In this document: positions 1 to 45,731 of the stretch, one piece after another
Numbering within the stretch: the stretch's first letter is position 1
How the letters are laid out: each line of letters starts with the position of its first letter
Source: Sulfolobales archaeon HS-7
GTDB taxonomy: Archaea > Thermoproteota > Thermoprotei_A > Sulfolobales > Sulfolobaceae
Assembly (NCBI GenBank): GCA_019704295.1
Contig: AP024596.1
Coordinates: 1,440,001 to 1,504,000, forward strand
Reading direction: 5' to 3'
DNA length: 64,000 nt
Position numbers and translations under genes: made by a program
The notes under the pieces: model-generated
Told to the model about the DNA's origin: nothing
Seen by the model: only the letters and a program-made list of their open reading frames with translations
Database searches by the model: none

Positions 1-2610
1 TGAGAGGACGGATTCGGAGATCGCCTCCCTTACCTTTTCCTTTCCGCAAATGTAATTCCCGTTGAAACCGCATATTATCGCTTCCTCTCCCAGGTAAATC
101 GCTGAGATCGCTAGTGCAGGCTTCCTCTCAACGGTGGCAACTCCTACCTTCTTCGTGTTCACTACTGTCCTATCGCACAGGTAACCCAGGTACCTTATGC
201 CGAGTTCCCTCAATTTCTCCCAGGATGCCATTTTGCTAGGCCTTATTCCCGGGTCGATCCACCTCATTATCACCTTTACTAGTTCATCTTCATTGATCTT
301 CCTTAACTCATCCTCCAATCGGCTGCAGTTCAACTCCTCGTTCCTAACGCTTATGCCCCCTTTTCTTAACCTCTCCACGAGAGCCGTTGGTTCATACTCC
401 CAGATTACCACCCTGTTCTTGGACTCCTTCCCAAGTCCCATCGGCTGTATGAAGAACCTCAGGTGATTGTGTTGTACCCCGAACTTCCTCCTTAATACGG
501 CGCTTACAAAAGCGTGACCGAGGGTTACGGATTCCTCATCGTCCCTGGGGTCTAGATCGCTTTCGTAAACGTATGTGTAGTCCTCGTACCTCCCCACTTT
601 GCTACAGGCTAATTCGATCTCCCTCGTTCTGTACTCCAGTACGCCTTTCCCATCTCCTAAGGGAATCATCTGCTTACCCTCGCTCTCCACTATCCAGCTG
701 ACCGAATGCGGAAACTCGGTATATCTGGTAAAACCCTGCTTCTCATATGAAAATCCTACGGTCACTTTCGGCTGGATCTTCCCCCTCAGTAAGTCTTCGG
801 CGAACTTCTTAACCCCCTCTTCTGTCAATTCCTCCCAGGACTTCTTCACCTGAAGGTAGGCCTGTATTCCCTGAGCTACGCAATTAGGAACGTTGTGAAG
901 CCCTTCCCTCACGGAGGTCTCGTTTACGGTGTAACCTTCCTTTTGCGTAACGGACGTAATGACAGCGTCATTTACGTGATCCAGGTATCCAGGCTGGTAC
1001 TTCTCAACCAAATCCTTCATCGAGATCTCCGTGTACTTCCTACCATCGACCACGACGGGGATCATGTTCTCATACGTTTTCCCCCTAGTGTAGAAGTTAA
1101 CTGCGTAAAACTCCTCCTCTCCCCTCTCATTTAGCCTCTCCTTGTACAGCCCCATTTCCTTTAGGAGTTCGTAACTCCCGCTTAAACCTAATTTGGCCTC
1201 AATTAGCTCTCTGAGGAGTTTCGGATACTTGTTCTCAGCTGTGTATATAAGTACCTCCGGTCCTAAGCTCTCCCACTCGTTTATGCCCCCCGCCATGATA
1301 GCCATGTCATCCTCAGTTAAGGGAAACACCACTATCTCAGAGACGGGCATCTTCTTGGGATCTCTCCCCGCCCTTCCGTTCTTTTGAATGTACTCCCTAA
1401 CGGATTGGGGTAATCCGTAGTGAACTACTCTCCCTATATTCGGGAAGTTTATGCCCTGGGAAAGCGTCCTGACGGATATCCCCACCTTTTTTCTCCCCTG
1501 CGCTAAATCCTCCTCTAGCCTCCTCCTCTCCCCCTCCGAAACGTAATGATGGTGCACTCCTGCAGAAGGCAACCATTTTTTCAACTCATTCGCTGAATTA
1601 ACCCCCTTGGTAAAGACCAGGGTCACCGCCTCATCCCTCTCGTAATTCCTTAAGAGGAGTATTACGTCATCCTTATTATAAGGTCTAGAAGATATCCTCT
1701 GTCCCCGTCTTATGAGTTGGTAATTTTTCGAGGGTCTCCACTTAAGGTCGCTGACGAACTTGTGAAAAACCCTCTTGAACTCCTCGTAATCAAGGGAGTA
1801 ATCCCCCCACTCTGAGGAAAGGGAACGGGAGATCTTGTGAAGCTCGTCAACAACTCCCCTTCTTCCCAGGATGAGGTAAGTGGTGATTTGAGGTCTCGGG
1901 GCCTTACCCTGTATTATCGCGCACTCCCTCCCAGTTAACTCTGAGAGCCTGTTTGAGAACTCCTCCGGATTGGAGAGTGTGGCGGTGACCACTACTATCT
2001 GTATTTGCCTTCCAATAACGTGAGAGATCAACAACCCCAGGAGCTCGAGGAGGAGCGAGGCCTTACTGCTTCCGTAAAAATCGAACTCGTCGAGGACGAT
2101 AAGCTGAACTGAGGAGAGGAATTTCCTGAAGGGAGAGTTCAGGTATTCGTAAGTCCTCACCCTCTTTATCTCCATGAGCAACTGCTGAGGGTTGGTCGTG
2201 ACTATGTCCGCTGACTCCAGAACTGTACCCTCTGTCTTCTCCCTTCCTGAGATCACGCCTATTGACAAATTGGTCATCTGAGCTATCTCCCTGAGCCTCT
2301 TGGTCTGATCGCTTTGAAGGGCGACAGTAGGGTAAACCGCGAGGGTTCTCACCCTTTTCGATATTGAGTAGAGGAGCCACGACTCCGTCTTACCGCTACC
2401 CGTCTCCGCCCTGAGCACAACGTTCTTTCCCTCGTTTAGGGAGTTTAACGCCTCGCATTGGTGGGCGTATAAGTTGAAGTTCTTGTCACTCGGAATGAAG
2501 TCGTTCAACGTCTTATCGCAGAGATCTACGGTATTGGGCTCCCTAACGAAGGTCAGGTATTCGAGTTGAAGACCCCTCAGCAACGGTTCAGTGGAGAGCA
2601 TAACGGTCAT
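1..2610 (-). CDS. DEAD/DEAH-box SF2 helicase (partial, runs off the left edge)
   Basis: Hand translation from ATG 2610 (or 2601) gives Q motif LYAHQ, Walker A AETGSGKTE, motif II LIVLDEFD, TATLSNP and motif VI QKNGRAGR. It is absent from the ORF track, consistent with no stop inside the window. Confidence 0.9.
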   Translation of the reverse strand, partial: MTVMLSTEPLLRGLQLEYLTFVREPNTVDLCDKTLNDFIPSDKNFNLYAHQCEALNSLNEGKNVVLRAETGSGKTESWLLYSISKRVRTLAVYPTVALQSDQTKRLREIAQMTNLSIGVISGREKTEGTVLESADIVTTNPQQLLMEIKRVRTYEYLNSPFRKFLSSVQLIVLDEFDFYGSSKASLLLELLGLLISHVIGRQIQIVVVTATLSNPEEFSNRLSELTGRECAIIQGKAPRPQITTYLILGRRGVVDELHKISRSLSSEWGDYSLDYEEFKRVFHKFVSDLKWRPSKNYQLIRRGQRISSRPYNKDDVILLLRNYERDEAVTLVFTKGVNSANELKKWLPSAGVHHHYVSEGERRRLEEDLAQGRKKVGISVRTLSQGINFPNIGRVVHYGLPQSVREYIQKNGRAGRDPKKMPVSEIVVFPLTEDDMAIMAGGINEWESLGPEVLIYTAENKYPKLLRELIEAKLGLSGSYELLKEMGLYKERLNERGEEEFYAVNFYTRGKTYENMIPVVVDGRKYTEISMKDLVEKYQPGYLDHVNDAVITSVTQKEGYTVNETSVREGLHNVPNCVAQGIQAYLQVKKSWEELTEEGVKKFAEDLLRGKIQPKVTVGFSYEKQGFTRYTEFPHSVSWIVESEGKQMIPLGDGKGVLEYRTREIELACSKVGRYEDYTYVYESDLDPRDDEESVTLGHAFVSAVLRRKFGVQHNHLRFFIQPMGLGKESKNRVVIWEYEPTALVERLRKGGISVRNEELNCSRLEDELRKINEDELVKVIMRWIDPGIRPSKMASWEKLRELGIRYLGYLCDRTVVNTKKVGVATVERKPALAISAIYLGEEAIICGFNGNYICGKEKVREAISESVLS

Positions 2611-25683: not shown

Positions 25684-25687
25684 GTTC

Positions 25688-27330: not shown

Positions 27331-30255
27331 ATGAAGATATCGATTGATAACAAGGAAGCAACAGCAAATGAAGGGGAAACCATCTTATCAGTATTAAAGA
27401 GGAACGGGATATACGTACCCCACATATGTTACAATGAGGGCTTATCGCCAGTAGAGAGTTGCGATTCATGCCTAGTGGAAGTGGACAAAAGACTAGTTAG
27501 GGCTTGTTCAACAAAGGTCGAAGATGGAATGAGCATTCTAGTGAACAGTTCCAGGGCGATAAACTCTAGGAAAACTGCAATTTCCAGAATATTAAAGTAT
27601 CATAAACTCTATTGTAGTATGTGTGAAAATAACAATGGAGACTGCGAATTACATGACGCTGTAATAAAATTGGGAATAAACTCACAGAAATACGTTGAAA
27701 AACCGCACACCGTCGACGATACAGGACCCTTTTACGTTTATGATCCATCGCAATGTATACTTTGTGGGAGATGTGTTGAGGCTTGCCAGGATTTCGCAGT
27801 AAATGAGGTAATATGGATTAATTGGGATTTAAATCCTCCCCGAGTGGTCTGGGATAACGGAAATCAAATAGGGAATTCCTCATGTGTTAACTGCGGAACT
27901 TGTGTAACAGTGTGTCCTGTGAACGCTTTAATGGAGAGAACAATGCTAGGAGAAGCTGGATATCTAACGTGGATTAACAAAGAGTTAAAGAGAAGGGCGA
28001 TCGAAGCAATAGGAAAAGCTGAGGACAACTTCAGCCTGTTAATGACTTTTAGCGAAATCGAGGCAAAAGCCAGGGAAAGACAGATAAAGAGGACGAAAAC
28101 CGTTTGCGTTTACTGCGGAGTCGGTTGTTCCTTTGAGATATGGACTAAGGGGAGGAAAACACTAAAGGTGGAACCTAAGCCAGAGTCTCCAGCTAACGGA
28201 ATTCTAACGTGCGTCAAAGGGAAGTTCGGTTGGGACTTCGTTAATAGCTCAGATAGGATAACAAAACCCCTAATAAGGGAAGGAGATAGATTCAGAGAGG
28301 CGACCTGGGATGAAGCGATATCATACATTGCTAAAAGGCTAAAGGAGATAAAGGAAAAATACGGACCAGATTCCGTCGCAATCATAGCCTCAGATAAGAT
28401 GAGTAACGAGGAGGCTTACCTATTACAAAAACTAGGTAGAGCGATAGTAGGAACCAACAATGTAGATAACTCTGCAAGGTATTGCCAGGCCCCAGCCACA
28501 GTAGGGCTTTGGAGAACCGTGGGGATAGGGGCAGATTCCGGAACTATTAAGGACATAGAAATGGCTGACTTAATAATTACAGTGGGGCATAACACTACCG
28601 AAAGTCACCCCGTTATAGGAAGTAAGGTAAAGAGAGCCCAGAAAATTAGGGGGGCAAAGGTAGTTGTAATAGACGTGAGAAAGCACGAAATGGCTGAAAT
28701 GGCCGACCTATTCATAAGACCAAAACCAGGCACCGATGCGGCAATATTGGCTGCCGTTGCTAAATACATTATTGACAAAGGATGGGAAAACGCGGAGTTC
28801 ATTGAGAAGAGGGTAAAGGGATTTGATGAATTCAAGGAATCCATAAAGGGGTTCACATTAGATTACGTTGAAAGCGTTAGCGGAGTTTCAAAGGAACAAA
28901 TAATTAAATTAGCGGAAATGATACACGAAGTTAAAAACGTAGTAATATTATGGGGAATGGGAGTAACGCAGCATTTAGGAGGGGCTGATACGTCAACCAT
29001 AATATCTGACTTGCTGTTAATAACCGGAAACTACGGAAGGCCAGGGACTGGAGCGTATCCCATGAGAGGTCATAACAATGTACAAGGGGTTAGCGATTTC
29101 GGCTGTTTACCTAATTACTTACCAGGATATCAGAGATTAGACGATGAAAACGTAATAAGGAAATTCGAAGAGAGTTGGGGAGTTAGATTAAACGGAAAGC
29201 CGGGATTGCAAATACCTAAAATGATTGAGGGAGTATTAGAGGATAAAGTTCACGCCTTGTACATAGTTGGAGAGGACACCGTAATGGTGGACTGCGGAAC
29301 CCCATTGACTAAACAGGCCTTAGAGAAGGTAGACTTCTTAATAGTTCAGGACATGTTCATGACCGAAACTGCCAAATTAGCCCATGTAATATTACCGGCA
29401 GCTGCCAGCATAGAGAAAGAAGGGACATTCGTAAATACCGAGAGGAGGATTCAAAGATCCTATAAGGCCATGGAACCGTTAGGAGACTCTAAACCTGATT
29501 GGGAAATAATCCAAATGATCGCTAATGCCTTAGGGGCAAACTGGGACTATAAGCACCCCTCGGAGATAATGGATGAAATAGCTAGACTGTGTCCAATATT
29601 TGCCGGAGTTAGCTACTTAAGGTTAGAAGGATTTAATAGCCTACTATGGCCGGTACATGAGGATGGAAGCGACACTCCACTTTTATATGCTAACGCTTTC
29701 GCAACGAGAGACGGAAAGGCCGTGTTATATCCGTTAAGCTGGAAACCTCCGGAACTAAGAGATGAGGTTCATAGAGTGATCGTAAATAGCGGAAGAGTGC
29801 TAGAACACTTCCACGTAGGAAATATGACGGGAAGAGTTGAGGGATTGAGGCGAAAGGTTCCGGAAACTTTCGTTGAGGTATCAAGGGAATTGGCCGTAAA
29901 GTACTCCATAAAGAGCGGAGATCTCGTATTGGTAAAATCTAAATTTGGAGGGGAGGTAAAAGCTAGGGCTGTAGTTAGCGATAGAGTTCGAGGCGAGGAG
30001 ATATTCATACCCTTATTCGCTTCAGATCCCTCTAAAGGCGTTAATAACCTCACTGGCTTAGAAATAGACAAGGCAAGCGGTACCCCTGGATATAAGGATA
30101 CGCCGGTGGTAATAGAGAAAATAGAGGAAGGGAAGGGAGGAAGCCCGTTACCTTCAGATAATTGGAGATTTCACTTAAATGAGAGGAAAAGACAGATAGG
30201 AATAGAGGTGCAAAAGAAATGGGTGAAAGAGGAGTTCAAACCATTGACGGATTAG
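27331..30255 (+). CDS. fdhF: Formate dehydrogenase alpha subunit (FdhF/YjgC-like molybdopterin protein)
   Basis: N-terminal 2Fe-2S and 4Fe-4S motifs (CILCGRCVEAC, CVNCGTCVTVCP), CVYCGVGC, ARYCQ (Cys form) and RGHNNVQG. Confidence 0.93.
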   Translation: MKISIDNKEATANEGETILSVLKRNGIYVPHICYNEGLSPVESCDSCLVEVDKRLVRACSTKVEDGMSILVNSSRAINSRKTAISRILKYHKLYCSMCENNNGDCELHDAVIKLGINSQKYVEKPHTVDDTGPFYVYDPSQCILCGRCVEACQDFAVNEVIWINWDLNPPRVVWDNGNQIGNSSCVNCGTCVTVCPVNALMERTMLGEAGYLTWINKELKRRAIEAIGKAEDNFSLLMTFSEIEAKARERQIKRTKTVCVYCGVGCSFEIWTKGRKTLKVEPKPESPANGILTCVKGKFGWDFVNSSDRITKPLIREGDRFREATWDEAISYIAKRLKEIKEKYGPDSVAIIASDKMSNEEAYLLQKLGRAIVGTNNVDNSARYCQAPATVGLWRTVGIGADSGTIKDIEMADLIITVGHNTTESHPVIGSKVKRAQKIRGAKVVVIDVRKHEMAEMADLFIRPKPGTDAAILAAVAKYIIDKGWENAEFIEKRVKGFDEFKESIKGFTLDYVESVSGVSKEQIIKLAEMIHEVKNVVILWGMGVTQHLGGADTSTIISDLLLITGNYGRPGTGAYPMRGHNNVQGVSDFGCLPNYLPGYQRLDDENVIRKFEESWGVRLNGKPGLQIPKMIEGVLEDKVHALYIVGEDTVMVDCGTPLTKQALEKVDFLIVQDMFMTETAKLAHVILPAAASIEKEGTFVNTERRIQRSYKAMEPLGDSKPDWEIIQMIANALGANWDYKHPSEIMDEIARLCPIFAGVSYLRLEGFNSLLWPVHEDGSDTPLLYANAFATRDGKAVLYPLSWKPPELRDEVHRVIVNSGRVLEHFHVGNMTGRVEGLRRKVPETFVEVSRELAVKYSIKSGDLVLVKSKFGGEVKARAVVSDRVRGEEIFIPLFASDPSKGVNNLTGLEIDKASGTPGYKDTPVVIEKIEEGKGGSPLPSDNWRFHLNERKRQIGIEVQKKWVKEEFKPLTD

Positions 30256-30575
30256 TTGAACAACTGGCTGAAAGCAAGGACGCGTTAGAGGAGTTCTTAG
30301 CCCTATTAAACGCATTGCAGAAGTCCGGAATACTGCCGCTGTTAATTGGAATAGTGGAAAAACTGGACGAGAACTTAGCTTTCTTAGCGGAACAAAACGC
30401 TATATTCATAAGGAACGTTAACGTGATTTACAGCGTTTTAAGTGGGAAGGAAGAGGTCGGTAATGTGAGTTTAGGAGAGTTAATAAGGGAACTAAACGAT
30501 CCCGATGTCAGGAGGGGATTGCACCTAGTTTTAAAGGTACTTAAGGCGATAGGTAGTGCAAGTAAGAAAAGTTAA
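30219..30575 (+). CDS. DUF1641/YjgD-like helical protein of the fdh operon
   Basis: C-terminal LxELNDPDVRRGL..LKAIG motif; lies between fdhF and fdhD. Confidence 0.8.
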   Translation: MGERGVQTIDGLVEQLAESKDALEEFLALLNALQKSGILPLLIGIVEKLDENLAFLAEQNAIFIRNVNVIYSVLSGKEEVGNVSLGELIRELNDPDVRRGLHLVLKVLKAIGSASKKS

Positions 30576-31320
30576 TTTAACTAGGGTTAAGGAGAGGGAA
30601 GAGTTCAATGATGAGGATTTCGTGGCAGTAGAGGAGCCTTTACAGATTAGGATATGTAATGGGAGTTGCGATACTTTCGCGGTCATAATGAGGACTCCAG
30701 GAAATGATGAGGAACTCTCTTTAGGTTTCTTATACTCTGAGGGAGTGATAGATAGTGTAGAGGACGTTGAAAGCATTCAGCGAAACGGAAACGTAATGGA
30801 TGTTAGGATAAACAAACCGTTAAGGGTGAAAACCAGAGACCTAATAGTTAATTCCAGTTGCGGAGTTTGTGGAAGGGCATTCCTTTACACTATCAACATA
30901 ATAAGCTCTAAGACAAAAATTAAAAAGGAAGTGATTTTCTCCTTACCGGAGAAATTAAAGGAAAGGCAGAGCGTCTTTAACGTAACTGGAGGACTTCACG
31001 CCTCAGCCTTATTTACAATTGACGGCGAACTAATTTGCTTATACGAAGATGTCGGAAGGCACAACGCTGTAGATAAAGTAGTGGGAAGCCTCGTTTTGAA
31101 GAAAAAATTACCCGCTTATTCATATGTGATGCAAGTTAGCGGAAGAATAGGTTACGAGATCGTAAGCAAAGGAATAAAGGCGGGAATCCCAGTGATCTGT
31201 GGCATCTCAGCTCCAACTAGCCTCGCAATAGAAATGGCTGAGGAGGCTGGAGTCACGTTAATAGGCTTTCTAAGAGGGAAAAGCTTTAATATTTACACGC
31301 ATAGAGAGGCAATTTTTTGA
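30556..31320 (+). CDS. fdhD: Formate dehydrogenase sulfurtransferase FdhD
   Basis: VAVEEPL, MRTPG, SSCGVCG, TGGLHA, EDVGRHNAVDK, SAPTSLA. Confidence 0.96.
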   Translation: MQVRKVNLTRVKEREEFNDEDFVAVEEPLQIRICNGSCDTFAVIMRTPGNDEELSLGFLYSEGVIDSVEDVESIQRNGNVMDVRINKPLRVKTRDLIVNSSCGVCGRAFLYTINIISSKTKIKKEVIFSLPEKLKERQSVFNVTGGLHASALFTIDGELICLYEDVGRHNAVDKVVGSLVLKKKLPAYSYVMQVSGRIGYEIVSKGIKAGIPVICGISAPTSLAIEMAEEAGVTLIGFLRGKSFNIYTHREAIF

Positions 31321-31996: not shown

Positions 31997-32923
31997 ATGA
32001 GTATTTCATTTATACAGGCTATAATAAGCCTGCTGGGCGGCGGCTTTGGCGGCGGTTTTAGCGGCGGTTTTATCTCATACTGTCTTGAGAACAGGAGATT
32101 TGCTAAATTATCCTTTCATAAAAATTTAATTTTTAATACTTTTTCTAACTCCGTAAGGGTCCTTCTGAAAGTAGAAAATAATAAAGGGGTCTTTAATGCA
32201 ACCAACACATTTTGCCAGATATCAGTTGAAATGAGCTTGAAAGGTGAAAACGAAAGTAGTCAGAGAAGGAATACGCACGATGATATAAGGAATTATATCA
32301 TGAAAGAATGCAAATTCGAGGAAGAAAAGAAACCAGAAGGCTATAACGAGAGAGCATGGACTCCCTTAATAAACCCATATGATAGATACAGAGAGGTTAG
32401 CGGAGAGCCCGTTTCCTGGAATATATGGGTGAGTAATGGAACGGGAATTGAAAATATGGTGTTCAAACATGTGGGAATAATTCCGAATAGGGGTTTTAAC
32501 ATGGCAATACTAATGGATATCTACAAGACTGTAAATAAGGAATATATTTTGAGGATAAACAGCGAATATGGTCCTGAGGACAAACCCAAGCTTCTCTTGA
32601 AGTTACCAATAGGAAATGATAAGATAGAAAAGATAACGATTAGTGTTGTTGCTGCGGGTAACAATGTTGAGACACCTGCTAGAGGAGAAGTAACTATAAA
32701 GCCCGTATGCGATAAAGATAAGACAATTCAGGAGAAATCGGAGACGTCCAGAGATAAGGAATGCGATTATGAAATAGGACTCACAATTAATAAAACAGGC
32801 ATTAGTAAAAAATTGGATACCATAATAAGGATTGTTATGTGTAAAGAGGACTCGAGACAAGTAAAATTTTCTGAAATCTTCAATAAATATAACATTAAAA
32901 CAATAGACTGCAAAAGCGAATAG
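31997..32923 (+). CDS. Hypothetical protein with N-terminal Gly-rich membrane anchor
   Basis: 308-aa AT-rich ORF starting MSISFIQAIISLLGGGFGGGFSGG; next to a plasmid plrA remnant. Confidence 0.75.
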   Translation: MSISFIQAIISLLGGGFGGGFSGGFISYCLENRRFAKLSFHKNLIFNTFSNSVRVLLKVENNKGVFNATNTFCQISVEMSLKGENESSQRRNTHDDIRNYIMKECKFEEEKKPEGYNERAWTPLINPYDRYREVSGEPVSWNIWVSNGTGIENMVFKHVGIIPNRGFNMAILMDIYKTVNKEYILRINSEYGPEDKPKLLLKLPIGNDKIEKITISVVAAGNNVETPARGEVTIKPVCDKDKTIQEKSETSRDKECDYEIGLTINKTGISKKLDTIIRIVMCKEDSRQVKFSEIFNKYNIKTIDCKSE

Positions 32924-33156
32924 TTTTTATAGAATATTTTACTTTTTATTAAATTATATACTTATACTTCTTTGTTAATCCTGGATCCCGCATCTCTTAA
33001 GAAAAAGAGCTGGCTCTCGAGATATTGGCGAAAAACCTTACACTTTATCAATCCTAATATACCCGTATTAGGAACTCAATTTCAGAGTCCTTCGATTTAG
33101 GTAACACTTTGTTAATCATATTTAAGGTTTATCAATCACTTTCGCAATACAATTTT

Positions 33157-33410
33157 ATGGAAAGTAAGATTGAGAAACACAAGAAACCCTTCACAATTAC
33201 GCAGATCGTTTTGATGGTAATGGCTAAAAGTCTTGGAAGTGCTGTAGCTTAGAATATCTCACTGAGAAGACGTTGGTAGATAAAGACGAGTTGTTGGTCT
33301 ATCTGTCCAGGACGGCGCAGAGGGGTAGAGAGGAAGTGGCATAAGGAGAGAGCAGGAAAAGATAGGATGTATTGTCTGAAGTATAAGGAGGGAGATAATA
33401 TAAGTAAACC
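33157..33410 (+). pseudogene. plrA: plrA (Sulfolobales plasmid regulatory protein) pseudogene
   Basis: Across frameshifts it reads TITQIVLMVMAKS / CCSLEYLTEKTLVDKDELLVYLSR / ERKWHKERAGKDRMYCLKY, matching the PlrA (pRN1 ORF80-like) pattern. Confidence 0.75.
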
Positions 33411-33672
33411 CGATGATAAATTCCTAGAGCATGCCAAAGCTTTTTCGTAAGTAGCCTACTCTGATTTAGAAGCAAGTAAACTTCTCTGGGAAGGCAATTA
33501 TTAAGTCCAACCATATTTATCTACAATCAACTGAGAAGATGTTCAGATTATTCAGAATTATGCATTAGTATTTTTTGTAGAATTTTTCAGAACAATTACA
33601 GAAGAACTACTAGGCTTCAGTAATATTAGAGTTAATAACTTAAAGATGCATCTCCAGTCGTTAAAAAGGGAT

Positions 33673-36600
33673 TCAAAAAGGGGAATCCTTTTTCTGTCTA
33701 ACCTCGTCCAGTGTTAATATACCCTTGTCGATCAGAACATTAACGTGATCCCAAGCATGTGACCTAACGTATTCACTCGGTGATTCAAGAAGTGAGAGAA
33801 AATGGTCCTTTTTCTGTCTAACCTCGTCCAGTGTTAATATACCCTTGTCGATCAGAACATTAACGTGATCCCAAGCACGTGACCTAACGTATTCACTCGG
33901 TGATTCAAGAAGTGAGAGAAAATGGTCCTTTTTCTGTCTAACCTCGTCCAGTGTTAATATACCCTTGTCGATCAGAACATTAACGTGATCCCAAGCACGT
34001 GACCTAACGTATTCACTCGGTGATTCAAGAAGTGAGAGAAATGCCTTGGAATCCTCCCTCGTTAATATACCCTTGTCGATCAGAACATTAACAATACTCC
34101 AAGCACGTGACCTAACGTATTCACTCGGTGATTCAAGAAGTGAGAGAAAATGGTCCTTTTTCTGTCTAACCTCGTCCAGTGTTAATATACCCTTGTCGAT
34201 CAGAACATTAACAATACTCCAAACAGTGATGCAAACATACTCGTCAGTTGCGCTCAGCATCCTTAAGATTAGATTATTAAAATGTGATTTGTATGGAGAT
34301 TCACGTACAGATGTAAGCCGTGATTTAAAGTCTGGTTTGTTAATCACGCCAGCAATCGGCCTCATCATGACCTCAAAGGTCTGAATTACATCGGCTTTAT
34401 CAGAATATCTTTCCAAAAGATATGCTATTACTTCCAATATCTTGACCTTAAAATCTTCGTCACTGAAATATGGGACCACGGAAATAGCGTCGAAAAGGAA
34501 AGTCGAAACGTTATTTGGCCTGCTGAAATAACGTTGGTGATTTTTAATATAACTTTCTGAGTCTTTATAAATTTGGAGAATTAACCTCCCGTAACTATTA
34601 CACACTTCTTTTAGCTCTTCCCTAATTCTATTAAGGTATTTATCAAATTCCTCAAAATCAAAGTTCGTTTTTCCCAGCTTCGTTATTAAATTTTCGTGCC
34701 CTAATTCATCCTCTAATTTATCTGGGATTTCCTCGCCGTCTAAATACCCTACCAAAATATTGTATCCTTCCTTCACCGAGCCGTGGATAGGAGATAGTAT
34801 TCCTCGGTGGTCCATTCGGAAAAACGGGAAGAAAGCGTTAACTTCCCCATTCTCCACTCTTACTACTCCTACCGTACCCTCCTGTACCGTGTCCCTTTGT
34901 AAGGAGATTAGGGAATCCAGAGCACGGTAGAGTAGGGAACTTTCCGTATTAAGACCAACTAAGCTCAACCTCTCCTTGTCAACAGCAGCGATCGGTACTC
35001 CTTTGCTTTCCAACATAGCCCCCAGTAGGGCAAGAATTAGGAGGAATTCCTTCTTACCACTTTCTGTTTCTAGGGGAATGTCTCCATTTTTAAAGTAAAA
35101 CTGTTGAATCTTCCTAAAGGCATATGTTTTAGGGTTCCGGTCTATTTCGTCTAGGTCTTCTTCGCTTATGTTCTCCTTTCCCTCTAGAAAGTACCTTAAT
35201 ACTACAGGCAGTCTGGCCCTCTTCACTATTTTTCGCTTCAACTCATCACTGATTTTTATGTTCTCAGATAGCATACTCTCCAGAATCTTCATTAATTCGT
35301 CTTCATTCGTGTTAATGCGGATTTCCTTGAACAGATTCCCCCGCTCCCTCAGTTTTCTCCATAAATCCCCCTTATGCAGATCTGCGAATCCCATCTCAGC
35401 TTTCTCCACAACGGATCTCCACATCGTCTCTTCCGTTGTGATGAGAATCGGACATTCCGCGTTGCCCTCTATAAACGCTTCATGTAGGACATTGGTTAAA
35501 TGTTCCTGCAACATGTTCGTGGTAACTCTACCGTCATCTAAAATTAAAAGGCACTTCCCATCCCTGGAGGGAGGATATTTAAATGTCCTTGGATCTTGGA
35601 TCGAATAAACCACAAATTTTCCTCCAGTTTCTCCTTCCGCTCTCTCCATCAACTTTTTCACGACGAGATAGGAGAACCAGCTCTTTCCCACTCCTGAAGG
35701 ACCTATTACGGCATAAAATAGGGGATTTCCCCTAAAGGTGGAGAGTTCTGATAAAGTATGTTTTCTCCAGCTGAGGATCTCATTGGCCAGTTCATTGACT
35801 TTCTCTTGCTTAATCTCAACTAGAGTTTCTTCGTTTACACCATAATATTCCTTAATTGAGTCCTTATCCTCTGGTTTTAACCCGGCTTGCTTAATTTGTC
35901 CCTCCTTGAGCCTGTTTATTTCCTCTTCATGCTTTTTTATTTCCTCTTCATGCCTGTTTATTATTTCTTCGAGTTTATCTATTCTTTCCTTTATCTTCTT
36001 GACCTCGCTCTCAAGCTCTGGCACTTTCCTTATGACTTCGTTCAGCTTCTTTATGTAATCCTCGGTAAAGATCTGCTTAAGTCTAGACAAAAACTCATCG
36101 TACCCCCCTCCCGGTCCCACAGGGGATAGCCAGCTTGAGAGGAAGCTGTAGCAGTCCCCGGGGTTGAGGCCGTATTTCTCGTCCAGTTTCTCGCACAGGA
36201 TCTCCCTCTTCTCCACCGGATATTCGTTCCAGGCCTTGTGTAGCTTTACGTACTTTCCAAGACCCGCGTCTTTCCTCTCCTCGTAAAAGCTAAGTATTAA
36301 TGACACTCCGAAGAGTATTACTGATGCTGGCAATAAAAATTCCGAGATAAGGCGAGACAGAGTAGGTAACAAAGGCCCCTTAAGGTATTCCAGGGTTTCG
36401 CCTAAAGCTCCCATCCCTTCGGAAAGGCTTAAACCAAAGGTCTCAAGCAGAAGCTCTTCCCTATGTCTCTCAAGTTCTTTCAATTTTTCAAGGATCTCTT
36501 CGCTTTTGCCAGCATGCTCTTCGATTACTCTCTCCAGAAGAGGTGGTATCAACAACCCATTACCCTCTAGCGGGGAGCCACCAAAGCTGGCCAGCTCAAG

Positions 36601-37992
36601 GAGGTGACACCTCTTTCTCCTTAGCTCTTCCTCGCTGAGGCCGGTTTCTCCCCTACGCTTGTCGGCTATCTTCTTTAAAAAGTACTCGAAAAGCCCTTCG
36701 GCGTCCTCTTTAGTAATCTTCGACTCGACAAGTACACTGCCTTCAGGGATCCAGCTTCTCTTTTCTTCTTTACCCTTTTTTCCAAAGACACGATTGAGTA
36801 GATCTTTTCCAAAGATAGGATTATGTAGATCCCCCCTCTTTTCACCCTTTAGGAACCGGATCTGGTAGTTGCTCCCCTCTATTAAGACCTTCCCGTGTAA
36901 TCTGTCCTTTATCTTCTCTGCGTAACCTTCGTCCATAGAGTAGTAGGGAAGTTCAACGTAGGAGTATTCTTCTGGAAGGATTCCCTTCTTCCTCGCCCTA
37001 AGGATCGCCATGGTCTTACCGGAATAACGATGACCAAAAAGGACCACGGGCACTCCTCTCTCCTTAGCTTTTTCCAAAGCTTCCTTCAGACTCGCGTCTA
37101 CGCTCAGCTCTACTCCGTAATCCGCGTAGTTTGGAAGGTCCTTAAATCCCTTACTTTCCCTCAAATAGACCATCAGCTCCTTGAGGAACTCTGAGGAAGT
37201 CTCCGGAATTGTTACCGCTTCCTCGATGTTCTTCTCTCCTCCAGGATGCACATCAAATGTGGGGACGTCCCCCAAGGCTTTCTTTACCTCTTCGTAAACA
37301 ACCTGCAGATCCTTATCTCTGAAGCTGTGCCCCACGACCAACAGGGGTACTCCGATGATGTGTCCCTTCATGCTGATGTAGATGGCTTCTCTATCTTCTT
37401 CAAATGACTTCAAGTCGTCCTGGGTGAGGACAATTTGTTTACTTTTTTCTTTGTCCTCTTCGTATATGTCGCCGTGAACCTTGTAAATCCTGATGTAGGC
37501 GTCAGTAGGTTGAGAGAAGTCGTCTTTGCTCTTTACCACGGTGTATCTCGTCGAGCCTTCATCTAATTTATCTTTAAGGGCGTCCTCAAGCTCCCGATCG
37601 AAGTTCGTTGTTATGATGTTGACTGTCAAGTGTTTCCCCTCTCTCTTCCAAGACTCTACCAAGGCCCTCAAGATTCTGGCCAGTAAAGAATAAGGATTCC
37701 TGAGGGAATCTCTTTTTAACCCTTCTTTCCTCTTCTTATCGAATATCTCCCTTATCTTTTTAATAATGTCTTCCCTCTTCACTCCCTTGTCGATTATATC
37801 CTTTACGACCGATTCAAGGTCTCCTGTCTGGACGTCGAATTCCTGGGCAAGGGCGGAGGCGAGCTCGTAGCTGAGAGGATAACCTAGCTCATAAGACACT
37901 TCCGCCCCTATAATTATTGTAGCTCCTCTTTCAGTGAGTAGATCAGCAAATTGCCTTACCTCAAGGGATACCACATCATACATATTTCGCAT
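33673..37992 (-). CDS. SIR2-like domain, two P-loop NTPase regions and C-terminal HEAT/ARM-like repeats (putative defence protein)
   Basis: IIIGAEVS, IITTNFD, YKVHGD and VVGHSFRD (SIR2_2-like); GHRYSGKT; coiled coil; GPSGVGKS with LLILDD; 40-aa repeats. Confidence 0.88.
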   Translation of the reverse strand: MRNMYDVVSLEVRQFADLLTERGATIIIGAEVSYELGYPLSYELASALAQEFDVQTGDLESVVKDIIDKGVKREDIIKKIREIFDKKRKEGLKRDSLRNPYSLLARILRALVESWKREGKHLTVNIITTNFDRELEDALKDKLDEGSTRYTVVKSKDDFSQPTDAYIRIYKVHGDIYEEDKEKSKQIVLTQDDLKSFEEDREAIYISMKGHIIGVPLLVVGHSFRDKDLQVVYEEVKKALGDVPTFDVHPGGEKNIEEAVTIPETSSEFLKELMVYLRESKGFKDLPNYADYGVELSVDASLKEALEKAKERGVPVVLFGHRYSGKTMAILRARKKGILPEEYSYVELPYYSMDEGYAEKIKDRLHGKVLIEGSNYQIRFLKGEKRGDLHNPIFGKDLLNRVFGKKGKEEKRSWIPEGSVLVESKITKEDAEGLFEYFLKKIADKRRGETGLSEEELRRKRCHLLELASFGGSPLEGNGLLIPPLLERVIEEHAGKSEEILEKLKELERHREELLLETFGLSLSEGMGALGETLEYLKGPLLPTLSRLISEFLLPASVILFGVSLILSFYEERKDAGLGKYVKLHKAWNEYPVEKREILCEKLDEKYGLNPGDCYSFLSSWLSPVGPGGGYDEFLSRLKQIFTEDYIKKLNEVIRKVPELESEVKKIKERIDKLEEIINRHEEEIKKHEEEINRLKEGQIKQAGLKPEDKDSIKEYYGVNEETLVEIKQEKVNELANEILSWRKHTLSELSTFRGNPLFYAVIGPSGVGKSWFSYLVVKKLMERAEGETGGKFVVYSIQDPRTFKYPPSRDGKCLLILDDGRVTTNMLQEHLTNVLHEAFIEGNAECPILITTEETMWRSVVEKAEMGFADLHKGDLWRKLRERGNLFKEIRINTNEDELMKILESMLSENIKISDELKRKIVKRARLPVVLRYFLEGKENISEEDLDEIDRNPKTYAFRKIQQFYFKNGDIPLETESGKKEFLLILALLGAMLESKGVPIAAVDKERLSLVGLNTESSLLYRALDSLISLQRDTVQEGTVGVVRVENGEVNAFFPFFRMDHRGILSPIHGSVKEGYNILVGYLDGEEIPDKLEDELGHENLITKLGKTNFDFEEFDKYLNRIREELKEVCNSYGRLILQIYKDSESYIKNHQRYFSRPNNVSTFLFDAISVVPYFSDEDFKVKILEVIAYLLERYSDKADVIQTFEVMMRPIAGVINKPDFKSRLTSVRESPYKSHFNNLILRMLSATDEYVCITVWSIVNVLIDKGILTLDEVRQKKDHFLSLLESPSEYVRSRAWSIVNVLIDKGILTREDSKAFLSLLESPSEYVRSRAWDHVNVLIDKGILTLDEVRQKKDHFLSLLESPSEYVRSRAWDHVNVLIDKGILTLDEVRQKKDHFLSLLESPSEYVRSHAWDHVNVLIDKGILTLDEVRQKKDSPF
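33686..34220. repeat. Near-perfect intragenic tandem repeat (120-bp units, one 108-bp unit)
   Basis: Sequence lines starting 33721, 33841 and 33961 are identical except for one base; about 4.5 units. Confidence 0.95.
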
Positions 37993-38602: not shown

Positions 38603-38967
38603 CTAAATTATTTCTATGTTCACACCTAAAGGCTTAATGTCTTGAAAATCCCTGTCCTTTGTCAGTAATACTTCGTTATTGGCGATAACTATCGAGGCTA
38701 TTAATATGTCCGAATCGCTCTTAATTTTACCGTTACCCTTCAGTGTTTTATGCATATTAGCTGCTATTTTCACCGAGTCTATCGCAGTGGGTAAATTATA
38801 ATTTGATCAAAAAAATCCCCTATACCGATGTTGTATTTACCCCTCACAATTTCATAGAAGTTTATTACAGTAGTTGCAATATTATTGAAATTATTTTTTA
38901 TAAAATTAAGTAAGTCCTTATCCCCTTTCATTATAGAAATTATTATGTTAGAATCAAGTACTACCAT
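38603..38967 (-). pseudogene. vapC: VapC/PIN toxin with a single frameshift
   Basis: MVVLDSNIII...FYEIVRG stops at 38779. The shifted frame continues IDSVKIAA...SDSDILIASIVIANNEVLLTKDRDF to a stop at 38603. Confidence 0.85.
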
Positions 38968-39196
38968 ATTCTCTAACTCTGAAACCCTTCCTGAACTCTT
39001 CTACCTCCTTTTCCAGTTCTGTAGCCTCTTCCTCGCTCAGAGTTCCGAATATTAGGTCTAACGCCTCTACCCTCCCCTTCCTGCTCTTATTATAATATTC
39101 AATTAATTCGTTTATAGCTTGGCTAAATGACTTACTACCTTTGAGCTTAGACAGCTTCTCGTAAACGTCATCTGAAATAGTTATAACTTTCGGCAT
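38954..39196 (-). CDS. vapB: VapB-family antitoxin
   Basis: MPKVITISDDVYEKLSKLKGSKSFSQAINEL; overlaps the vapC start. Confidence 0.9.
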   Translation of the reverse strand: MPKVITISDDVYEKLSKLKGSKSFSQAINELIEYYNKSRKGRVEALDLIFGTLSEEEATELEKEVEEFRKGFRVREYGST

Positions 39197-40529: not shown

Positions 40530-42704
40530 TCACCAGAGAATCGCTGTTTCGTTCTTAAGCCTTCTAAACCCCGTGTCCTTATCGTAATACTTTTCCAGGT
40601 CCTCCCTTTTCAGCAAGTACCAACCCAACTCCTCATCCAGTTCCAGGGGAGGTTCATCCCATGCCCTGACCACGTATTGTTCAGCCAACCCCCTCTGCAC
40701 CTTTAGCAAGGCCCTTCTCTGATACCCCCTCTGCTTAAGCACCTCCTTCAGCTCCTTCAGAACTTTCTCCGCCTCCTCATCAACGTTTACGTAAACTGAG
40801 TATTTGGGTTCCTCCTTAATTACCTTTAGCTCCACCTCCCCGTAGTTCAAATCCGTTATCTCCTTCTCTAGGTTCTCCCATTCCTTGGTACGAAAGTCGC
40901 TATACCTTCTCCTAATCTCCTCGTAAAACCTTCCCAAAATTGACGAAATGTCCCTTTCATTGAACCCCTTTTCCCAACCCTTCAGTGTGGACAGAGTTAC
41001 CTCTTCGCTCAGTTTACCGTATATAAGAGAGAAATCGGTGGAATTGACGTTCTCCCTCTTTACCCTAGTTAGGATGACCTCTCCTGTCTCTCCGTAATTC
41101 CTGTTAATCCTTCCAGCCGTTTGTACCACGGCATCAATAGGCCCTAAGTCCCTGTAACCTCTTCTGAAGTCAATGTCCACACCTGCTTCAACCATTTGAG
41201 TTGTCACCAGTATTACCCTTTCCCCCTTCTCAATCTTACTCTTGATGCGCTCTATCCGCCTCCACCTCTCTAAGGGCACTATCCTAGTGGAGAGGAAGTA
41301 AGGTTTCTCTCCCCTGTCTCTGAGGACTTTGAAAACTCTTTCCGCCGATTCAATTGTGTTAAGCTCTATCATAGTCGAAGTTCTCACGTCAATTCCCGCC
41401 GCAAGTTCCTCCGGAGTCTCCACCTGATCGAATTTCCTAAACCTGACAACGTACCTGTCTGGAACGGTCGTAACAGGTCTTTCCGGTTCTACGCTAAGAG
41501 GAGGTGTAGCCGTCATCATGAGGATCTCAACGTTAAGGTGTTTCGTCATTTCCTCCAACCCCTTCTTGATGATACCCAGGTATTCCAGGGGAAGTGCCTG
41601 GACCTCGTCTAGGATTAGGAAAGAGTTTGAGAGGTTGTGTAACCTTTTCAAGTTGGAGTTCTTGGGGGAGAAAAGGGTTGCCAGTAGGGCCTCAAAGGTA
41701 GTGACAATGAAGGGAGAATCCCAGCTCTCCGCCAACATGAGTTGCGACTCTAAGTCCCTTGTCTCATCTGCCCCTTTCTTCTGGGTGAAAGCCAGGTGAT
41801 GGAACTTCATGACGTTCTCCTCACTCAGAATGTCGGATAGAACCCTCCAGTTCTGCTCTATTATGCTAATGAAGGGTAGGGAGTACACTACCCTCCTTCT
41901 CCCTCCCTTCAGAGCCACTAGGGAACCCGCTAATGTCTTCCCGCTACCCGTAGGGGCAACCAGCGTTATGAAGGGAGACTCTTGAACGTAGTTTAAAGCC
42001 CAATTCCTAAGTTCCTCTCTCATTCCTCTAATTTGAGGGTTTGGTGAGGTAAGGCTTCTTATGTGCCTTTCAAGGATTTTGTAATCAGGTAGCGGTAGAC
42101 CTCTCTCCTCCACGTTACCTGCACTGTGTTTATCCGCATCGATCAGTGATGAAAAGATGAGTAGGCCCTCCAGATACTCCTTCCACCCCTTATCCCTAAG
42201 AACAGCATTCGTTACTTTCCTATATCCTTGCCTAAGGAGTTCCTCAAGCGAGGGGAGATCTGCGGGAACCCACTCAACTTCCTCTCTGATAGTAGACCAC
42301 TTGGACTTGATATCCTGATATTGTTTTACTAAACAAGTTTGGGGGTTTCCGATGTTATCCCTGTTATTTCTAAGTACATCGCGGTAATCCCTCAGACCCC
42401 TTAGGTAACCGTGATGGGAGTACACGGAAATCGCTGACAGCACTGAGTATAGGTCGTCCTTCACAGTGTAAAGGGTAATTATTGATGAAAAGAGGGCGTG
42501 ATCTGAACAGTCGACCCTCCTCTGATCAAGCAGGTGCTCCTGAAAAAAGCGGGAGTACTTTCCTATATCGTGAAGTCCGCCTGCCATAAAGGCGAATTCC
42601 GCCAGATCCTCTCTACCCGCATCAGTTATTCTTCTCCTTGCTCCCTCCCCCACTTCCCTCAAGTGTACTCTAATTTCCTTATCAGGATGACTGTAAAACT
42701 TCAC
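40530..42704 (-). CDS. cas3: Cas3 (HD nuclease-helicase fusion)
   Basis: LHDIGK, SHHG, LIDAD, APTGSGKT, DEVQ, TQMVEAGVDID, QTAGRINR. Confidence 0.96.
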   Translation of the reverse strand: MKFYSHPDKEIRVHLREVGEGARRRITDAGREDLAEFAFMAGGLHDIGKYSRFFQEHLLDQRRVDCSDHALFSSIITLYTVKDDLYSVLSAISVYSHHGYLRGLRDYRDVLRNNRDNIGNPQTCLVKQYQDIKSKWSTIREEVEWVPADLPSLEELLRQGYRKVTNAVLRDKGWKEYLEGLLIFSSLIDADKHSAGNVEERGLPLPDYKILERHIRSLTSPNPQIRGMREELRNWALNYVQESPFITLVAPTGSGKTLAGSLVALKGGRRRVVYSLPFISIIEQNWRVLSDILSEENVMKFHHLAFTQKKGADETRDLESQLMLAESWDSPFIVTTFEALLATLFSPKNSNLKRLHNLSNSFLILDEVQALPLEYLGIIKKGLEEMTKHLNVEILMMTATPPLSVEPERPVTTVPDRYVVRFRKFDQVETPEELAAGIDVRTSTMIELNTIESAERVFKVLRDRGEKPYFLSTRIVPLERWRRIERIKSKIEKGERVILVTTQMVEAGVDIDFRRGYRDLGPIDAVVQTAGRINRNYGETGEVILTRVKRENVNSTDFSLIYGKLSEEVTLSTLKGWEKGFNERDISSILGRFYEEIRRRYSDFRTKEWENLEKEITDLNYGEVELKVIKEEPKYSVYVNVDEEAEKVLKELKEVLKQRGYQRRALLKVQRGLAEQYVVRAWDEPPLELDEELGWYLLKREDLEKYYDKDTGFRRLKNETAILW

Positions 42705-43560: not shown

Positions 43561-43818
43561 TCATAAAACGTTGGACGGCCCTTTCTCCTCTCCAAGAATT
43601 TCCCTCTTCAGCGTTCTTTTAGATTCCGTTAAGTAAATTATAACTGAATCCCCTTCCCTCATTATTTGACGTAATTCCTCTTTTAGGGAGTAGAGCTTAC
43701 CCTCGGATATTTCCCCTTCAAATACCGACCTTTGAACCCAGGCAAGGTATTTCCTACAGATGTTAAGCGCTTTGTTTACCCGACTTTCATCAAAATCGTA
43801 AACCAGTACTACGTACAC
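43561..43818 (-). CDS. cas2: Cas2
   Basis: YVVLVYD...WVQRSVFEGEIS...DSVIIY. Confidence 0.95.
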   Translation of the reverse strand: MYVVLVYDFDESRVNKALNICRKYLAWVQRSVFEGEISEGKLYSLKEELRQIMREGDSVIIYLTESKRTLKREILGEEKGPSNVL

Positions 43819-44201: not shown

Positions 44202-44471
44202 CTAAATGTTGATTTCCTCAAGCCTCATCATGCTTACGCAGTATAATCTTATCCTTTTCCCATTTGGGGTCCTAAGCCCTCTTCTCGTTATGTGATCCTC
44301 TTTAGCTAGTCTACTTAGTACTACCTTAGCATTGTTTTCATCTATATTTACATCTCTACAAATTTCGTCAAGCGTCTCACAGTTGTTTCGTGCTAAGTAA
44401 AATGGTATAATTCTCCACATGTTCATATCATAATTTAGGCTAGGTAGGATTACAAAAATGTTACCCTTCAT
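44202..44471 (-). CDS. plrA: PlrA-like plasmid DNA-binding protein (true start probably later; may be decaying)
   Basis: CETLDEI...NAKVVLSRLAKE..I.R....GKRIRLYC matches the PlrA pattern. Confidence 0.75.
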   Translation of the reverse strand: MKGNIFVILPSLNYDMNMWRIIPFYLARNNCETLDEICRDVNIDENNAKVVLSRLAKEDHITRRGLRTPNGKRIRLYCVSMMRLEEINI

Positions 44472-44650
44472 GGAGACGTGGAAAACCGCTTTCCCAAACC
44501 CTTTTTAGTAGGATTACAAATTTGTAACACTCTCACTATTAACGCAAGAGTCTGCCCAAACGAGAGAAAAATCAGGGATCCGGGCAGGATTAATTATCTA
44601 TCTTCTAGCGATTATACTGGAGATCATAAAATTTTCTAAAAGATGAAATT

Positions 44651-45724: not shown

Positions 45725-45731
45725 TAACCTC

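Follow-up and report, generated by a model that had tools for sequence, protein, structure and literature searches.

An NLR-like protein with a SIR2 domain, two P-loop modules and near-identical repeats in a Sulfolobales CRISPR and defense island

In the 64,000-nucleotide stretch of the Sulfolobales archaeon HS-7 genome analyzed here (the window), a single intact open reading frame without internal stops occupies positions 33673-37992 of the minus strand and encodes a protein, P0001, of 1439 amino acids, or of 1436 in the database gene call, which starts at M4. The gene is present once in the 2.15-Mb, one-contig genome and is flanked by a type III-B Cmr module and by cas3/cas2 within a Sulfolobaceae defense island; these, along with three CRISPR arrays, KwaA and VapB, all lie no more than 15 kb away. 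The best matches of a neighboring gene likewise point to a Sulfolobaceae host. A SIR2 domain opens the protein; after it come a first P-loop, a conserved hydrophobic hairpin and a 45-residue coiled coil, and then a second P-loop and five ARM/HEAT-like units. A preliminary description of this DNA had proposed an NLR-like layout of SIR2 effector, two P-loop modules and repeat sensor, and that layout is real: the SIR2 motifs with GAE in place of GAG (G29-A30-E31) and with TTNFD and HG retained, the P-loops GHRYSGKT and GPSGVGKS, the latter followed by LLILDD, the hydrophobic segment and the coiled coil are all in the sequence. The same description had the reading frame ending in mid-repeat and perhaps truncated. 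It in fact ends three codons past a complete unit, and because relatives P0003, P0007, P0014 and P0018 end in the same repeat phase, the frame is not truncated. The features of the gene, in window positions, are as follows.

33673..37992, minus strand: whole open reading frame, 1439 aa, start at M1 (37992) or M4 (37983)
37138..37980, minus strand: SIR2 NADase-like domain of the ThsA/DSR2/Avs5 type, residues ~5-285 (Pfam, PADLOC, structure, profile)
37900..37902, minus strand: GAA codon of E31, where the NAD-binding motif GAGxS has its second Gly (family alignment)
37603-37605, minus strand: catalytic-type N130 of the SIR2 domain
37474-37476, minus strand: catalytic-type H173 of the SIR2 domain
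36403..37125, minus strand: NOD1, the first P-loop module, residues ~290-530 (family alignment, AF2, AAA+ matches, hhalign)
37012-37035, minus strand: Walker A of NOD1, G320-T327 (sequence)
36280..36372, minus strand: hydrophobic helix-turn-helix rich in Gly/Ala/Ser/Pro, residues ~541-571, predicted to act as an anchor or membrane-inserting hairpin
36073..36279, minus strand: conserved helical region, residues ~572-640, signature W..h..EKR..h...LD.K..L.PG..F.FL
35887..36063, minus strand: coiled-coil helix, residues ~644-702 (AF2 helix 658-702; weak coiled-coil-type matches)
34738..35760, minus strand: NOD2, STAND-type NTPase with lid and winged helix, residues ~745-1085 (alignment, structure matches)
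35680-35703, minus strand: Walker A of NOD2, G764-S771 (sequence)
33676..34665, minus strand: ARM/HEAT-like alpha-solenoid, putative sensor, residues ~1110-1439 (AF2, structure matches)
33685..34272, minus strand: five tandem units u0-u4, residues 1241-1436, near-identical in DNA from the second half of u0

The SIR2 assignment is supported by several comparisons. Pfam SIR2_2 (PF13289) matches residues 125-245 (E 3e-18), and PADLOC ThsA models match the SIR2 part of the protein and no other (9e-18, profile positions 10-213 of 478). In an AF2 model of residues 1-745 (pLDDT 86.6), the closest folds to this domain are those of the defense NADases ThsA, KomC, DSR2 and Avs5 (Z 19-23; profile E 3e-53 to 8e-18). 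ThsA is the best SIR2 match by both sequence and fold, with a family profile E of 3e-53 and, for BcThsA (8btp_A), Z 23.2 and an rmsd of 2.6 over 246 residues; EfAvs5 (9jap_A) gives Z 18.8, and classical sirtuins Z 14-16. The motifs T128-T-N130-F-D132 and H173-G174 are present, and the residues equivalent to N130, D132 and H173 are required in PaAvs5-1 and ThsA (PMC12931631).

NOD1 lies in a middle region of the protein for which Pfam has no model. A GxP-like motif marks its helical lid, and the family alignment shows conservation of its Walker A and of an hhhE[GA][ST] strand, here VLIEG at 370-374. The model of residues 290-512 matches the AAA+ proteins RFC, TnsC, Cdc6, DnaA and MuB (Z 8.4-9.2); one strand of the NOD1 core seems to be missing from the model. 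hhalign aligned NOD1 with NOD2 at 95.6% (E 1e-8). NOD1 alone gave no significant sequence match to the EfAvs5 NTPase. The hairpin that follows has a Kyte-Doolittle 19-residue mean of 2.15, and the aligned region reaches at least 1.6 in 38 of 42 family members; AF2 places its helices at 542-549 and 555-569, with lower pLDDT (62-71). In many members this region is a 25-39-residue stretch broken by Pro/Gly, which fits a re-entrant hairpin better than a single-pass membrane helix. A single pass is also unlikely because it would leave SIR2 and NOD1 on one side of the membrane and NOD2 on the other, when all of them need cytoplasmic NAD+ or ATP.

NOD2 has its Walker B, LLILDD, at 815-820, together with a sensor-1-like strand (PILITT) and a lid motif. 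Its Pfam matches in this protein, to nSTAND3 and AAA_16, are weak (nSTAND3 15.9 bits, below the 27.2-bit threshold), and the likeness to the nSTAND3/nSTAND5 conflict NTPases (PF20720, PF25199) comes from relatives whose NOD2 does reach Pfam thresholds: nSTAND5 at 39.6 bits in P0016 and 39.0 in P0020, and nSTAND3 at 33.1 in the homologue from genome G131. The top Foldseek matches of the C-terminal half are SAMD9 and EfAvs5, and ORC/Cdc6 (ORC2 19..388) and PP2A HEAT also match; against the STAND part of EfAvs5 the model gives Z 12.3 over 372 residues, with the STAND NTPase, lid, winged helix and helical-repeat C-terminus aligning to EfAvs5 302-837. The alignments to EfAvs5 STAND, SAMD9 and ORC2 take in the winged helix. 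As read from motifs and models, then, NOD2 has the predicted layout of a STAND NTPase, with Walker A and B, a GxP-like lid and a winged helix, followed by repeats.

The protein belongs to a rare and unnamed family, found mostly in archaea and comprising about 50 cluster representatives, whose core is modular: SIR2 or nothing, then NOD1, hairpin, coiled coil and NOD2, then either ARM/HEAT or TPR repeats, the two kinds of sensor being swapped on a conserved N-terminal half. Many members begin exactly at NOD1, with neither SIR2 nor another recognizable effector, and thus SIR2 is not essential to the family core. The P-loop/hairpin/coiled-coil module also stands alone in proteins of 372-421 aa, three copies of which are found in genome G295. 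Distribution is patchy, with a close NOD1 in only two of the 44 Sulfolobaceae species genomes searched, this one included. Among relatives, the P0015 gene adjoins cas6, while that of P0003 adjoins methyltransferases and a transposase. PADLOC gave no Avs model for our protein at E<=1 and no Dsr or other full-length defense model. Taken as a whole the family is uncatalogued, for PADLOC recognizes nothing beyond SIR2 and the middle module is missing from Pfam, and in the literature searched we found no description of two NTPase modules in tandem with a membrane-like hairpin between them.

The word "undescribed" in the earlier proposal therefore holds for the family, which as such is absent from PADLOC and Pfam, but is too strong for the kind of protein, because SIR2-STAND-repeat proteins, namely Avs5, have already been characterized (PMC12931631, PMC11897194). 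Avs5 (AVAST type 5; EfAvs5, PDB 9jap; PaAvs5-1, PDB 9nc9) is an antiviral STAND protein of SIR2-nSTAND3-repeat layout and the closest characterized relative, of which our protein is a variant architecture. Both are single polypeptides in defense-island settings, with an N-terminal SIR2_2 NADase-type domain carrying TTNxD, a STAND NTPase with lid and winged helix, and a C-terminus of variable helical-repeat sensors. PaAvs5-1 is localized to the membrane and pole and works with one Walker-B Glu (PMC12931631), as NOD1 does here. The tripartite Avs5 layout of SIR2, one STAND and repeats does not hold here, however, as there are two P-loop modules, the second of which is the structural match to the Avs5 STAND. 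Some 450 extra residues separate SIR2 from this STAND, comprising the AAA+-like P-loop module, the hairpin, the signature helical region and the coiled coil; neither tandem NTPase modules nor a conserved membrane-like hairpin has been reported for Avs5. The family profile finds EfAvs5 at 7.8e-18, a SIR2-driven match, and profiles of NOD1 or NOD2 alone do not list it. The SIR2 sequence is nearer ThsA than Avs5, the sensor resembles ARM/HEAT repeats and not TPR/Sel1/PPR, and the host, unlike that of Avs5, is a thermoacidophilic archaeon.

Two other systems share the SIR2 domain. DSR2 likewise fuses it (Z ~21) to a C-terminal helical-repeat sensor, one that binds a phage protein, but lacks any NTPase module, hairpin or coiled coil and is activated in a tetramer by direct tail-tube binding; our protein has two NTPase modules between SIR2 and repeats, and even P0007, laid out as SIR2-NOD1-hairpin-coiled coil-repeats, keeps NOD1. 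In Thoeris, the SIR2 of ThsA is joined to a ligand-binding SLOG/STALD domain and partnered by a separate TIR protein, whereas after residue 290 our protein continues with NTPase, helical and repeat regions.

On this evidence, the protein is probably an NLR-like sensor directed against viruses or plasmids, made as a single polypeptide of the SIR2-STAND kind; Avs5 is its closest counterpart, and an extra module lies between its effector and sensor. From its domains and motifs, we infer the following course of events. The C-terminal solenoid would bind an invader protein, freeing NOD2, the canonical STAND module, to bind ATP and oligomerize. The coiled coil and NOD1 might pass on or amplify this assembly, which would gather the N-terminal SIR2 domains for NAD+ hydrolysis, as in ThsA, DSR2 and Avs5, and so stop the infected cell by abortive infection or dormancy. 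The hairpin would probably tether the protein to the membrane on its cytoplasmic side, and the near-identical repeats could serve as a fast-evolving recognition surface.

A further reading, which we put forward tentatively and hold to be less than even in likelihood, takes these proteins as an uncatalogued archaeal immune family in its own right. At its heart would be an autonomous AAA+-like module that inserts into the membrane, made up of P-loop, lid, hydrophobic hairpin, signature helices and coiled coil, and that there links a canonical STAND sensor with swappable effectors. Such a protein would be a two-NTPase, membrane-tethered NLR, with the first NTPase and hairpin acting as amplifier or as a second, membrane-directed effector, and if the middle module is indeed an autonomous membrane-acting unit, it would be a new building block among prokaryotic immune domains.

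Whether this particular copy is active is a separate matter. E31 is a single G-to-A transition away from GGA. Of 69 aligned relatives, 66 have Gly there, all three close homologues among them, which casts doubt on NADase activity in this strain; the GAGxS motif contacts NAD+ in sirtuins (PMC12931631), and the change may weaken or abolish activity. We considered that the family is a defense family of which this copy has lost its NADase through G31E, leaving either a recent relic or a protein with a SIR2-independent role. We think this rather unlikely, as the 4.3-kb reading frame is otherwise fully intact with all remaining motifs kept, and relative P0040 has Asp at the same position. PaAvs5-1, moreover, can do without the "invariant" histidine of HG (PMC12931631), suggesting that SIR2 motifs are more plastic than assumed. 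The allele offers a natural comparison for how much SIR2 activity matters.

The SIR2-less members, the stand-alone modules and the widely hydrophobic hairpin would also suit a protein whose NOD1-hairpin-coiled-coil core is itself a membrane-acting effector or amplifier, for example by perturbing the membrane on oligomerization, with SIR2 an optional add-on. This seems improbable to us, as our search gave no similarity between the core and known pore-forming or membrane effectors, the hairpin is modeled at low confidence, and members that carry SIR2 conserve its catalytic residues, a sign that SIR2 is used. It is very improbable that this is a housekeeping or regulatory STAND/AAA+ protein whose SIR2 serves signaling by acting as NAD-dependent deacylase or ADP-ribosyltransferase, for although regulators occur among STAND proteins and SIR2 folds include deacetylases (hence the sirtuin matches above), SIR2_2/ThsA-type domains form the defense NADase clade, the gene sits in a CRISPR/defense island, its distribution is extremely patchy, and the sensor repeats are swappable and near-identical.

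STAND/NLR immunity has been characterized mainly in bacteria and eukaryotes, and work on Sulfolobales and their viruses has been dominated by CRISPR. We know of no characterized STAND/NLR example in the Sulfolobales, and a literature search, which was not systematic, gave no relevant paper. With an immune sensor of the SIR2-STAND kind as the preferred reading, this gene is a tractable thermophilic example, having all of its parts in one polypeptide within a CRISPR supercluster.

The repeats are a small natural experiment on how near-identical units may diversify a recognition surface. The solenoid is modeled with pLDDT mostly above 85 and matches PP2A PR65 (Z 12.3) and designed armadillo proteins, with a weak Pfam HEAT match. 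TRF finds 4.5 copies of a 120-nt period at 33686-34212 (90% matches, score 893), plus one 108-nt unit; u0 (residues 1241-1280) is diverged in its first half, u1 (1281-1316) has 36 aa, and u2-u4, of 40 aa each, differ by 1-3 nt in DNA. Variation is confined to R/H two residues before (-2) and SI/DH just after (+1/+2) an invariant Trp and to one 12-nt-shorter linker, bearing out the preliminary description of 40-aa repeats varying only at WSI/WDH, SR/SH and one 36-aa unit. Across 53 units of nine other proteins, with 35 columns ranked by entropy, the three variable helix positions take ranks 1-3, a correspondence that rests on only two or three events. Swappable N-terminal effectors and C-terminal repeats are common to this family and to fungal and bacterial NLRs, and near-identical units varying at few positions are shared with NLRs having conserved repeats; highly conserved tandem repeats diversify fungal NLRs. 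High-identity tandem repeats occur in five distinct family members, and P0010 and P0127 are identical but for one 47-aa unit, possibly a short-read assembly collapse. Together with the variable helix positions, these repeat comparisons lend some indirect support to the idea that the sensor may be diversifying by recombination.

The SIR2 gene is a single uninterrupted open reading frame of 1439 aa (window positions 33673-37992, minus strand), with one copy in the 2.15-Mb, one-contig genome; the database gene call starts at M4 and gives 1436 aa. All of the features listed for it in the preliminary description (a SIR2 domain, two P-loops, a hydrophobic stretch and repeats) were found in this frame, and the protein is a variant of the SIR2-STAND immune sensors that carries a conserved, membrane-like P-loop module. 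To our knowledge, such sensors have not been studied in the archaeal lineage of the host. The interpretation offered in that description is supported in part; its suggestion that the frame ends mid-repeat and may be truncated is not, because the stop codon lies three codons past a complete repeat unit, in the same phase as in the relatives P0003, P0007, P0014 and P0018. A T-run lies 3' of the stop; a local alignment for the relic of a sixth repeat beyond it gave just a 12-nt match at chance level.

The SIR2 domain is matched by Pfam SIR2_2 at residues 125-245 (3e-18), and the PADLOC match on the protein is to the SIR2 part of ThsA models only (9e-18). Its motifs are G29-A30-E31, T128-T-N130-F-D132 and H173-G174. 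The first P-loop is G320-T327, and the second is G764-S771 with a Walker B at L815-D820. Between them, residues ~541-571 have the highest 19-residue Kyte-Doolittle mean of the whole protein (2.15). Matches to LmuB, JetC and dynamin-like helical families at residues 437-744 were put down to the coiled coil and treated as noise.

For modelling with AlphaFold2 on the basis of family alignments, the protein was divided into two overlapping parts, residues 1-745 (pLDDT 86.6, pTM 0.84) and residues 700-1439 (pLDDT 84.2, pTM 0.80). Residues ~5-285 form a SIR2 fold whose nearest structures, by model comparison, are defence NADases: BcThsA is the top match (Z 23.2, rmsd 2.6 over 246 residues), and the others include KomC, the SPARSA SIR2, DSR2 (Z ~21) and EfAvs5 (Z 18.8). 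Family profile scores were 3e-53 for ThsA, 3e-28 for DSR2 and 8e-18 for EfAvs5. The first P-loop module (NOD1, ~290-512) resembles an AAA+ NTPase with its lid, as in RFC, TnsC, Cdc6/Orc1, DnaA and MuB, with moderate Z scores of 8.4-9.2 for a domain compared solely within the large 1-745 model. It is followed by the hydrophobic pair (helices 542-549 and 555-569, pLDDT 62-71), a confident helical region and a single 45-residue helix at 658-702. The C-terminal half opens with a P-loop NTPase, lid and winged helix (NOD2), a region that aligns over 372 residues with EfAvs5 in its STAND part (chain 302-837; Z 12.3) and also with ORC2, Hsp104 and ClpC; the top Foldseek matches of this half are SAMD9 and EfAvs5. 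From ~1110 onward the model is an ARM/HEAT-like solenoid, similar to PP2A PR65 (Z 12.3) and to designed armadillo proteins. A profile-profile comparison (95.6%, E 1e-8) shows that NOD1 and NOD2 are homologous; one strand of the core seems to be missing from NOD1. Searching a protein atlas with residues 290-745 by language-model features gave uninformative scores below 0.8, and a fold search of the atlas returned SIR2 clusters alone.

The closest characterised relative is Avs5, which consists of a SIR2 domain (PF13289), an nSTAND3 domain and TPR, Sel1 or PPR repeats, senses a phage protein, hydrolyses NAD+ in response and forms filaments; the Pseudomonas protein does its work at the membrane and at the poles (PMC12931631, PMC11897194). 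The tripartite layout of Avs5 is not that of the subject protein, since an insert of ~450 residues (AAA+-like module, hairpin and coiled coil) intervenes and the structural counterpart of the Avs5 STAND is the second NTPase. In a recent survey, the defence STANDs had no fewer than 90 sensor architectures (PMC12803255). A limited literature search turned up no account of STANDs with tandem NTPases and a hairpin, or of a SIR2-STAND protein from the Sulfolobales. By analogy, the subject protein would most plausibly work like Avs5, and we consider it reasonably probable that the family acts through an Avs5-like depletion of NAD, while the activity of the E31 allele itself is a separate doubt.

This doubt comes from the GAGxS motif, which contacts NAD+ in sirtuins (PMC12931631) and in which Glu replaces Gly at residue 31 of the subject protein. 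The equivalent residue is Gly in 66 of the 69 relatives aligned at the motif, including all three close homologues, and Asp in one relative. The E31 codon (GAA, 37900-37902) is one transition away from GGA. Judged from the motif, the change could cripple the NADase of this protein and is possibly a disabling effector mutation, and it bears directly on the catalytically dead SIR2 domain that the preliminary description had named as counting against its reading. Weighing against such an effect are the relative with Asp at this residue and the dispensability of the classical HG histidine in Avs5 proteins (PMC12931631).

A word-indexed search retrieved only three relatives, and exhaustive HMMER over 1.84 billion representatives gave 123 matches, of which about 50 truly belong to the family by more than their SIR2 domain. 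Few of the sources are named, and those are archaeal metagenome-assembled genomes of the Thermoprotei and Nitrososphaerota. The family architecture is modular. P0003 and P0006 have the full-length layout of SIR2, NOD1, hairpin, coiled coil, NOD2 and repeats; P0004 is 59% identical in its N-terminal half, but TPR repeats replace the ARM/HEAT units; P0007 is without NOD2. At least nine representatives start exactly at NOD1 with no SIR2 domain, and two of these N-termini were confirmed as complete on their contigs. The SIR2-less core also occurs in other Sulfolobaceae genera as ORFs of 1643-1652 aa, and the NOD1-hairpin-signature module stands alone in three ORFs of the Sulfolobaceae genome G295:

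L016, 3711-8669, plus strand, genome G131: SIR2-less ORF of 1652 aa
L017, 781-5712, minus strand, genome G191: SIR2-less ORF of 1643 aa
L044, 1120-2307, minus strand, genome G295: NOD1-module paralogue
L045, 1263-2516, minus strand, genome G295: NOD1-module paralogue
L046, genome G295: NOD1-module paralogue

The G131 and G191 ORFs carry P-loop 1, the hairpin, the signature, the coiled coil and an nSTAND3-type NOD2, and their C-terminal ~1000 residues have no assigned domain. Two of the G295 ORFs (395 and 417 aa) lie wholly inside their contigs, and the third (open frame of 372 aa) is ~10 nt from a contig end. These paralogues consist only of the NOD1 P-loop, the hydrophobic hairpin, the signature helices and a short coiled coil, with 27-30% identity to residues 290-678 of the subject protein. 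The module appears to be autonomous. Two apparent variants of the family were set aside: the C-half-only P0014 and P0036 are contig-end truncations and not separate genes of a split form, and the neighbour upstream of the SIR2-less P0020, considered as a separate effector, is a weak GNAT match unrelated to SIR2.

Conserved throughout the family in NOD1 are the Walker A and an hhhE[GA][ST] strand. A hydrophobic segment above 1.6 (Kyte-Doolittle) is present in 38 of 42 members, often as 25-39 uncharged residues broken by Pro or Gly, and C-terminal to it lies the signature W..LD.K..L.PG..F.FL. No Pfam family covers this middle module, and no PADLOC model matched the tested members beyond SIR2 or generic P-loop matches.

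Tandem Repeats Finder reports a repeat at 33686-34212 with a period of 120 nt, 4.5 copies, 90% matches and a score of 893. The units in the protein are:

u0, residues 1241-1280: first half diverged
u1, residues 1281-1316: 36 aa, with a linker 12 nt shorter
u2, u3 and u4: 40 aa each

Beginning with the second half of u0, the DNA is nearly identical, and u2, u3 and u4 are 1-3 nt apart. Apart from the linker swap, all variation is in R or H at position -2 of an invariant Trp and in SI or DH just after it. Five of the six nucleotides differ at the SI/DH site, which makes this a block difference and not scattered drift. The first half of u1 is of the u2-u4 type while its SI is that of u0; such a mosaic hints at exchange between units. 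An HMM that we built for the unit picked up 53 units in nine further proteins of the family. The three columns that vary within the array are those of highest entropy among the 35 (3.52, 3.45 and 3.39 bits, with the fourth close at 3.37), a coincidence with a chance of ~1 in 6500 if the sites are independent and ~1 in 200 if SI/DH is one event. The variable positions sit on each unit's long helix and would face the binding groove.

High-identity tandem repeats are also found in P0004, P0010/P0127, P0015 and P0047/P0129. From residue 1300 to each C-terminus (~400 aligned residues), P0010 (1703 aa) and P0127 (1750 aa), which come from different metagenomes, differ only by one whole TPR-like unit of 47 aa; this reflects either a real difference in copy number or a collapse of repeats in assembly.

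The patchy occurrence and the neighbourhood of the gene are typical of defence genes. Peptide patterns found no close relatives in 185k species genomes, a query of residues 250-740 found no close family member in 200 genomes of the order, and a NOD1 profile run against 43 family and 301 class genomes matched strongly in G000 and G295 only. The subject protein was not found on the viral contigs searched; the plasmid collection gave bacterial matches at the level of the SIR2 domain only and no Sulfolobales plasmid carrier. A look-up of public sequencing runs, RNA included, listed none with the gene. Among the relatives, P0015 adjoins cas6 fragments and P0003 adjoins methyltransferases and a transposase. 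In the window, the SIR2 gene has a Cmr module on one side and cas3 and cas2 on the other:

5696-8400, 12888-17500 and 47775-49421: three CRISPR arrays
20096-26596, minus strand: type III-B Cmr module, with Cas10/Cmr2 (919 aa), two RAMP proteins and further ORFs (503 and 158 aa) without assignment
27325-31320: formate dehydrogenase and FdhD, between the Cmr module and the SIR2 gene
31997-33620: 308-aa ORF, convergent with the SIR2 gene, without a Pfam or PADLOC family
33249-33514: two small ORFs with no Pfam match
38779-39196, minus strand: VapB-type antitoxin (80 aa, Pfam 2e-20), 1 kb upstream of the SIR2 gene
40530-42704: cas3
43561-43818: cas2
44202-46319, minus strand: within this span, a 357-aa ORF adjoining the KwaA homologue, with no PADLOC or Pfam match, and, next to these two, an 89-aa plasmid regulator of pRN type (Pfam 1.6e-4)
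45732-46319, minus strand: KwaA homologue (195 aa, PADLOC 4e-11)

The formate dehydrogenase adjacent to the SIR2 gene shares 77-83% identity with genes of Saccharolobus, Sulfolobales and Metallosphaera, and by this the genome belongs to the Sulfolobaceae. The 3' end of the antitoxin gene is overlapped, within 38779-39196, by a 62-aa ORF without a family match, which may be a truncated toxin partner. The three CRISPR arrays have one 30-nt repeat in common, which reads GTTTCAAGCCCTCATAGGAAAGCTACAAAC or the complement of this, and together they hold more than 130 copies of it. Repeat-spacer units duplicated exactly lie at 14779-14910 and 48027-48156.
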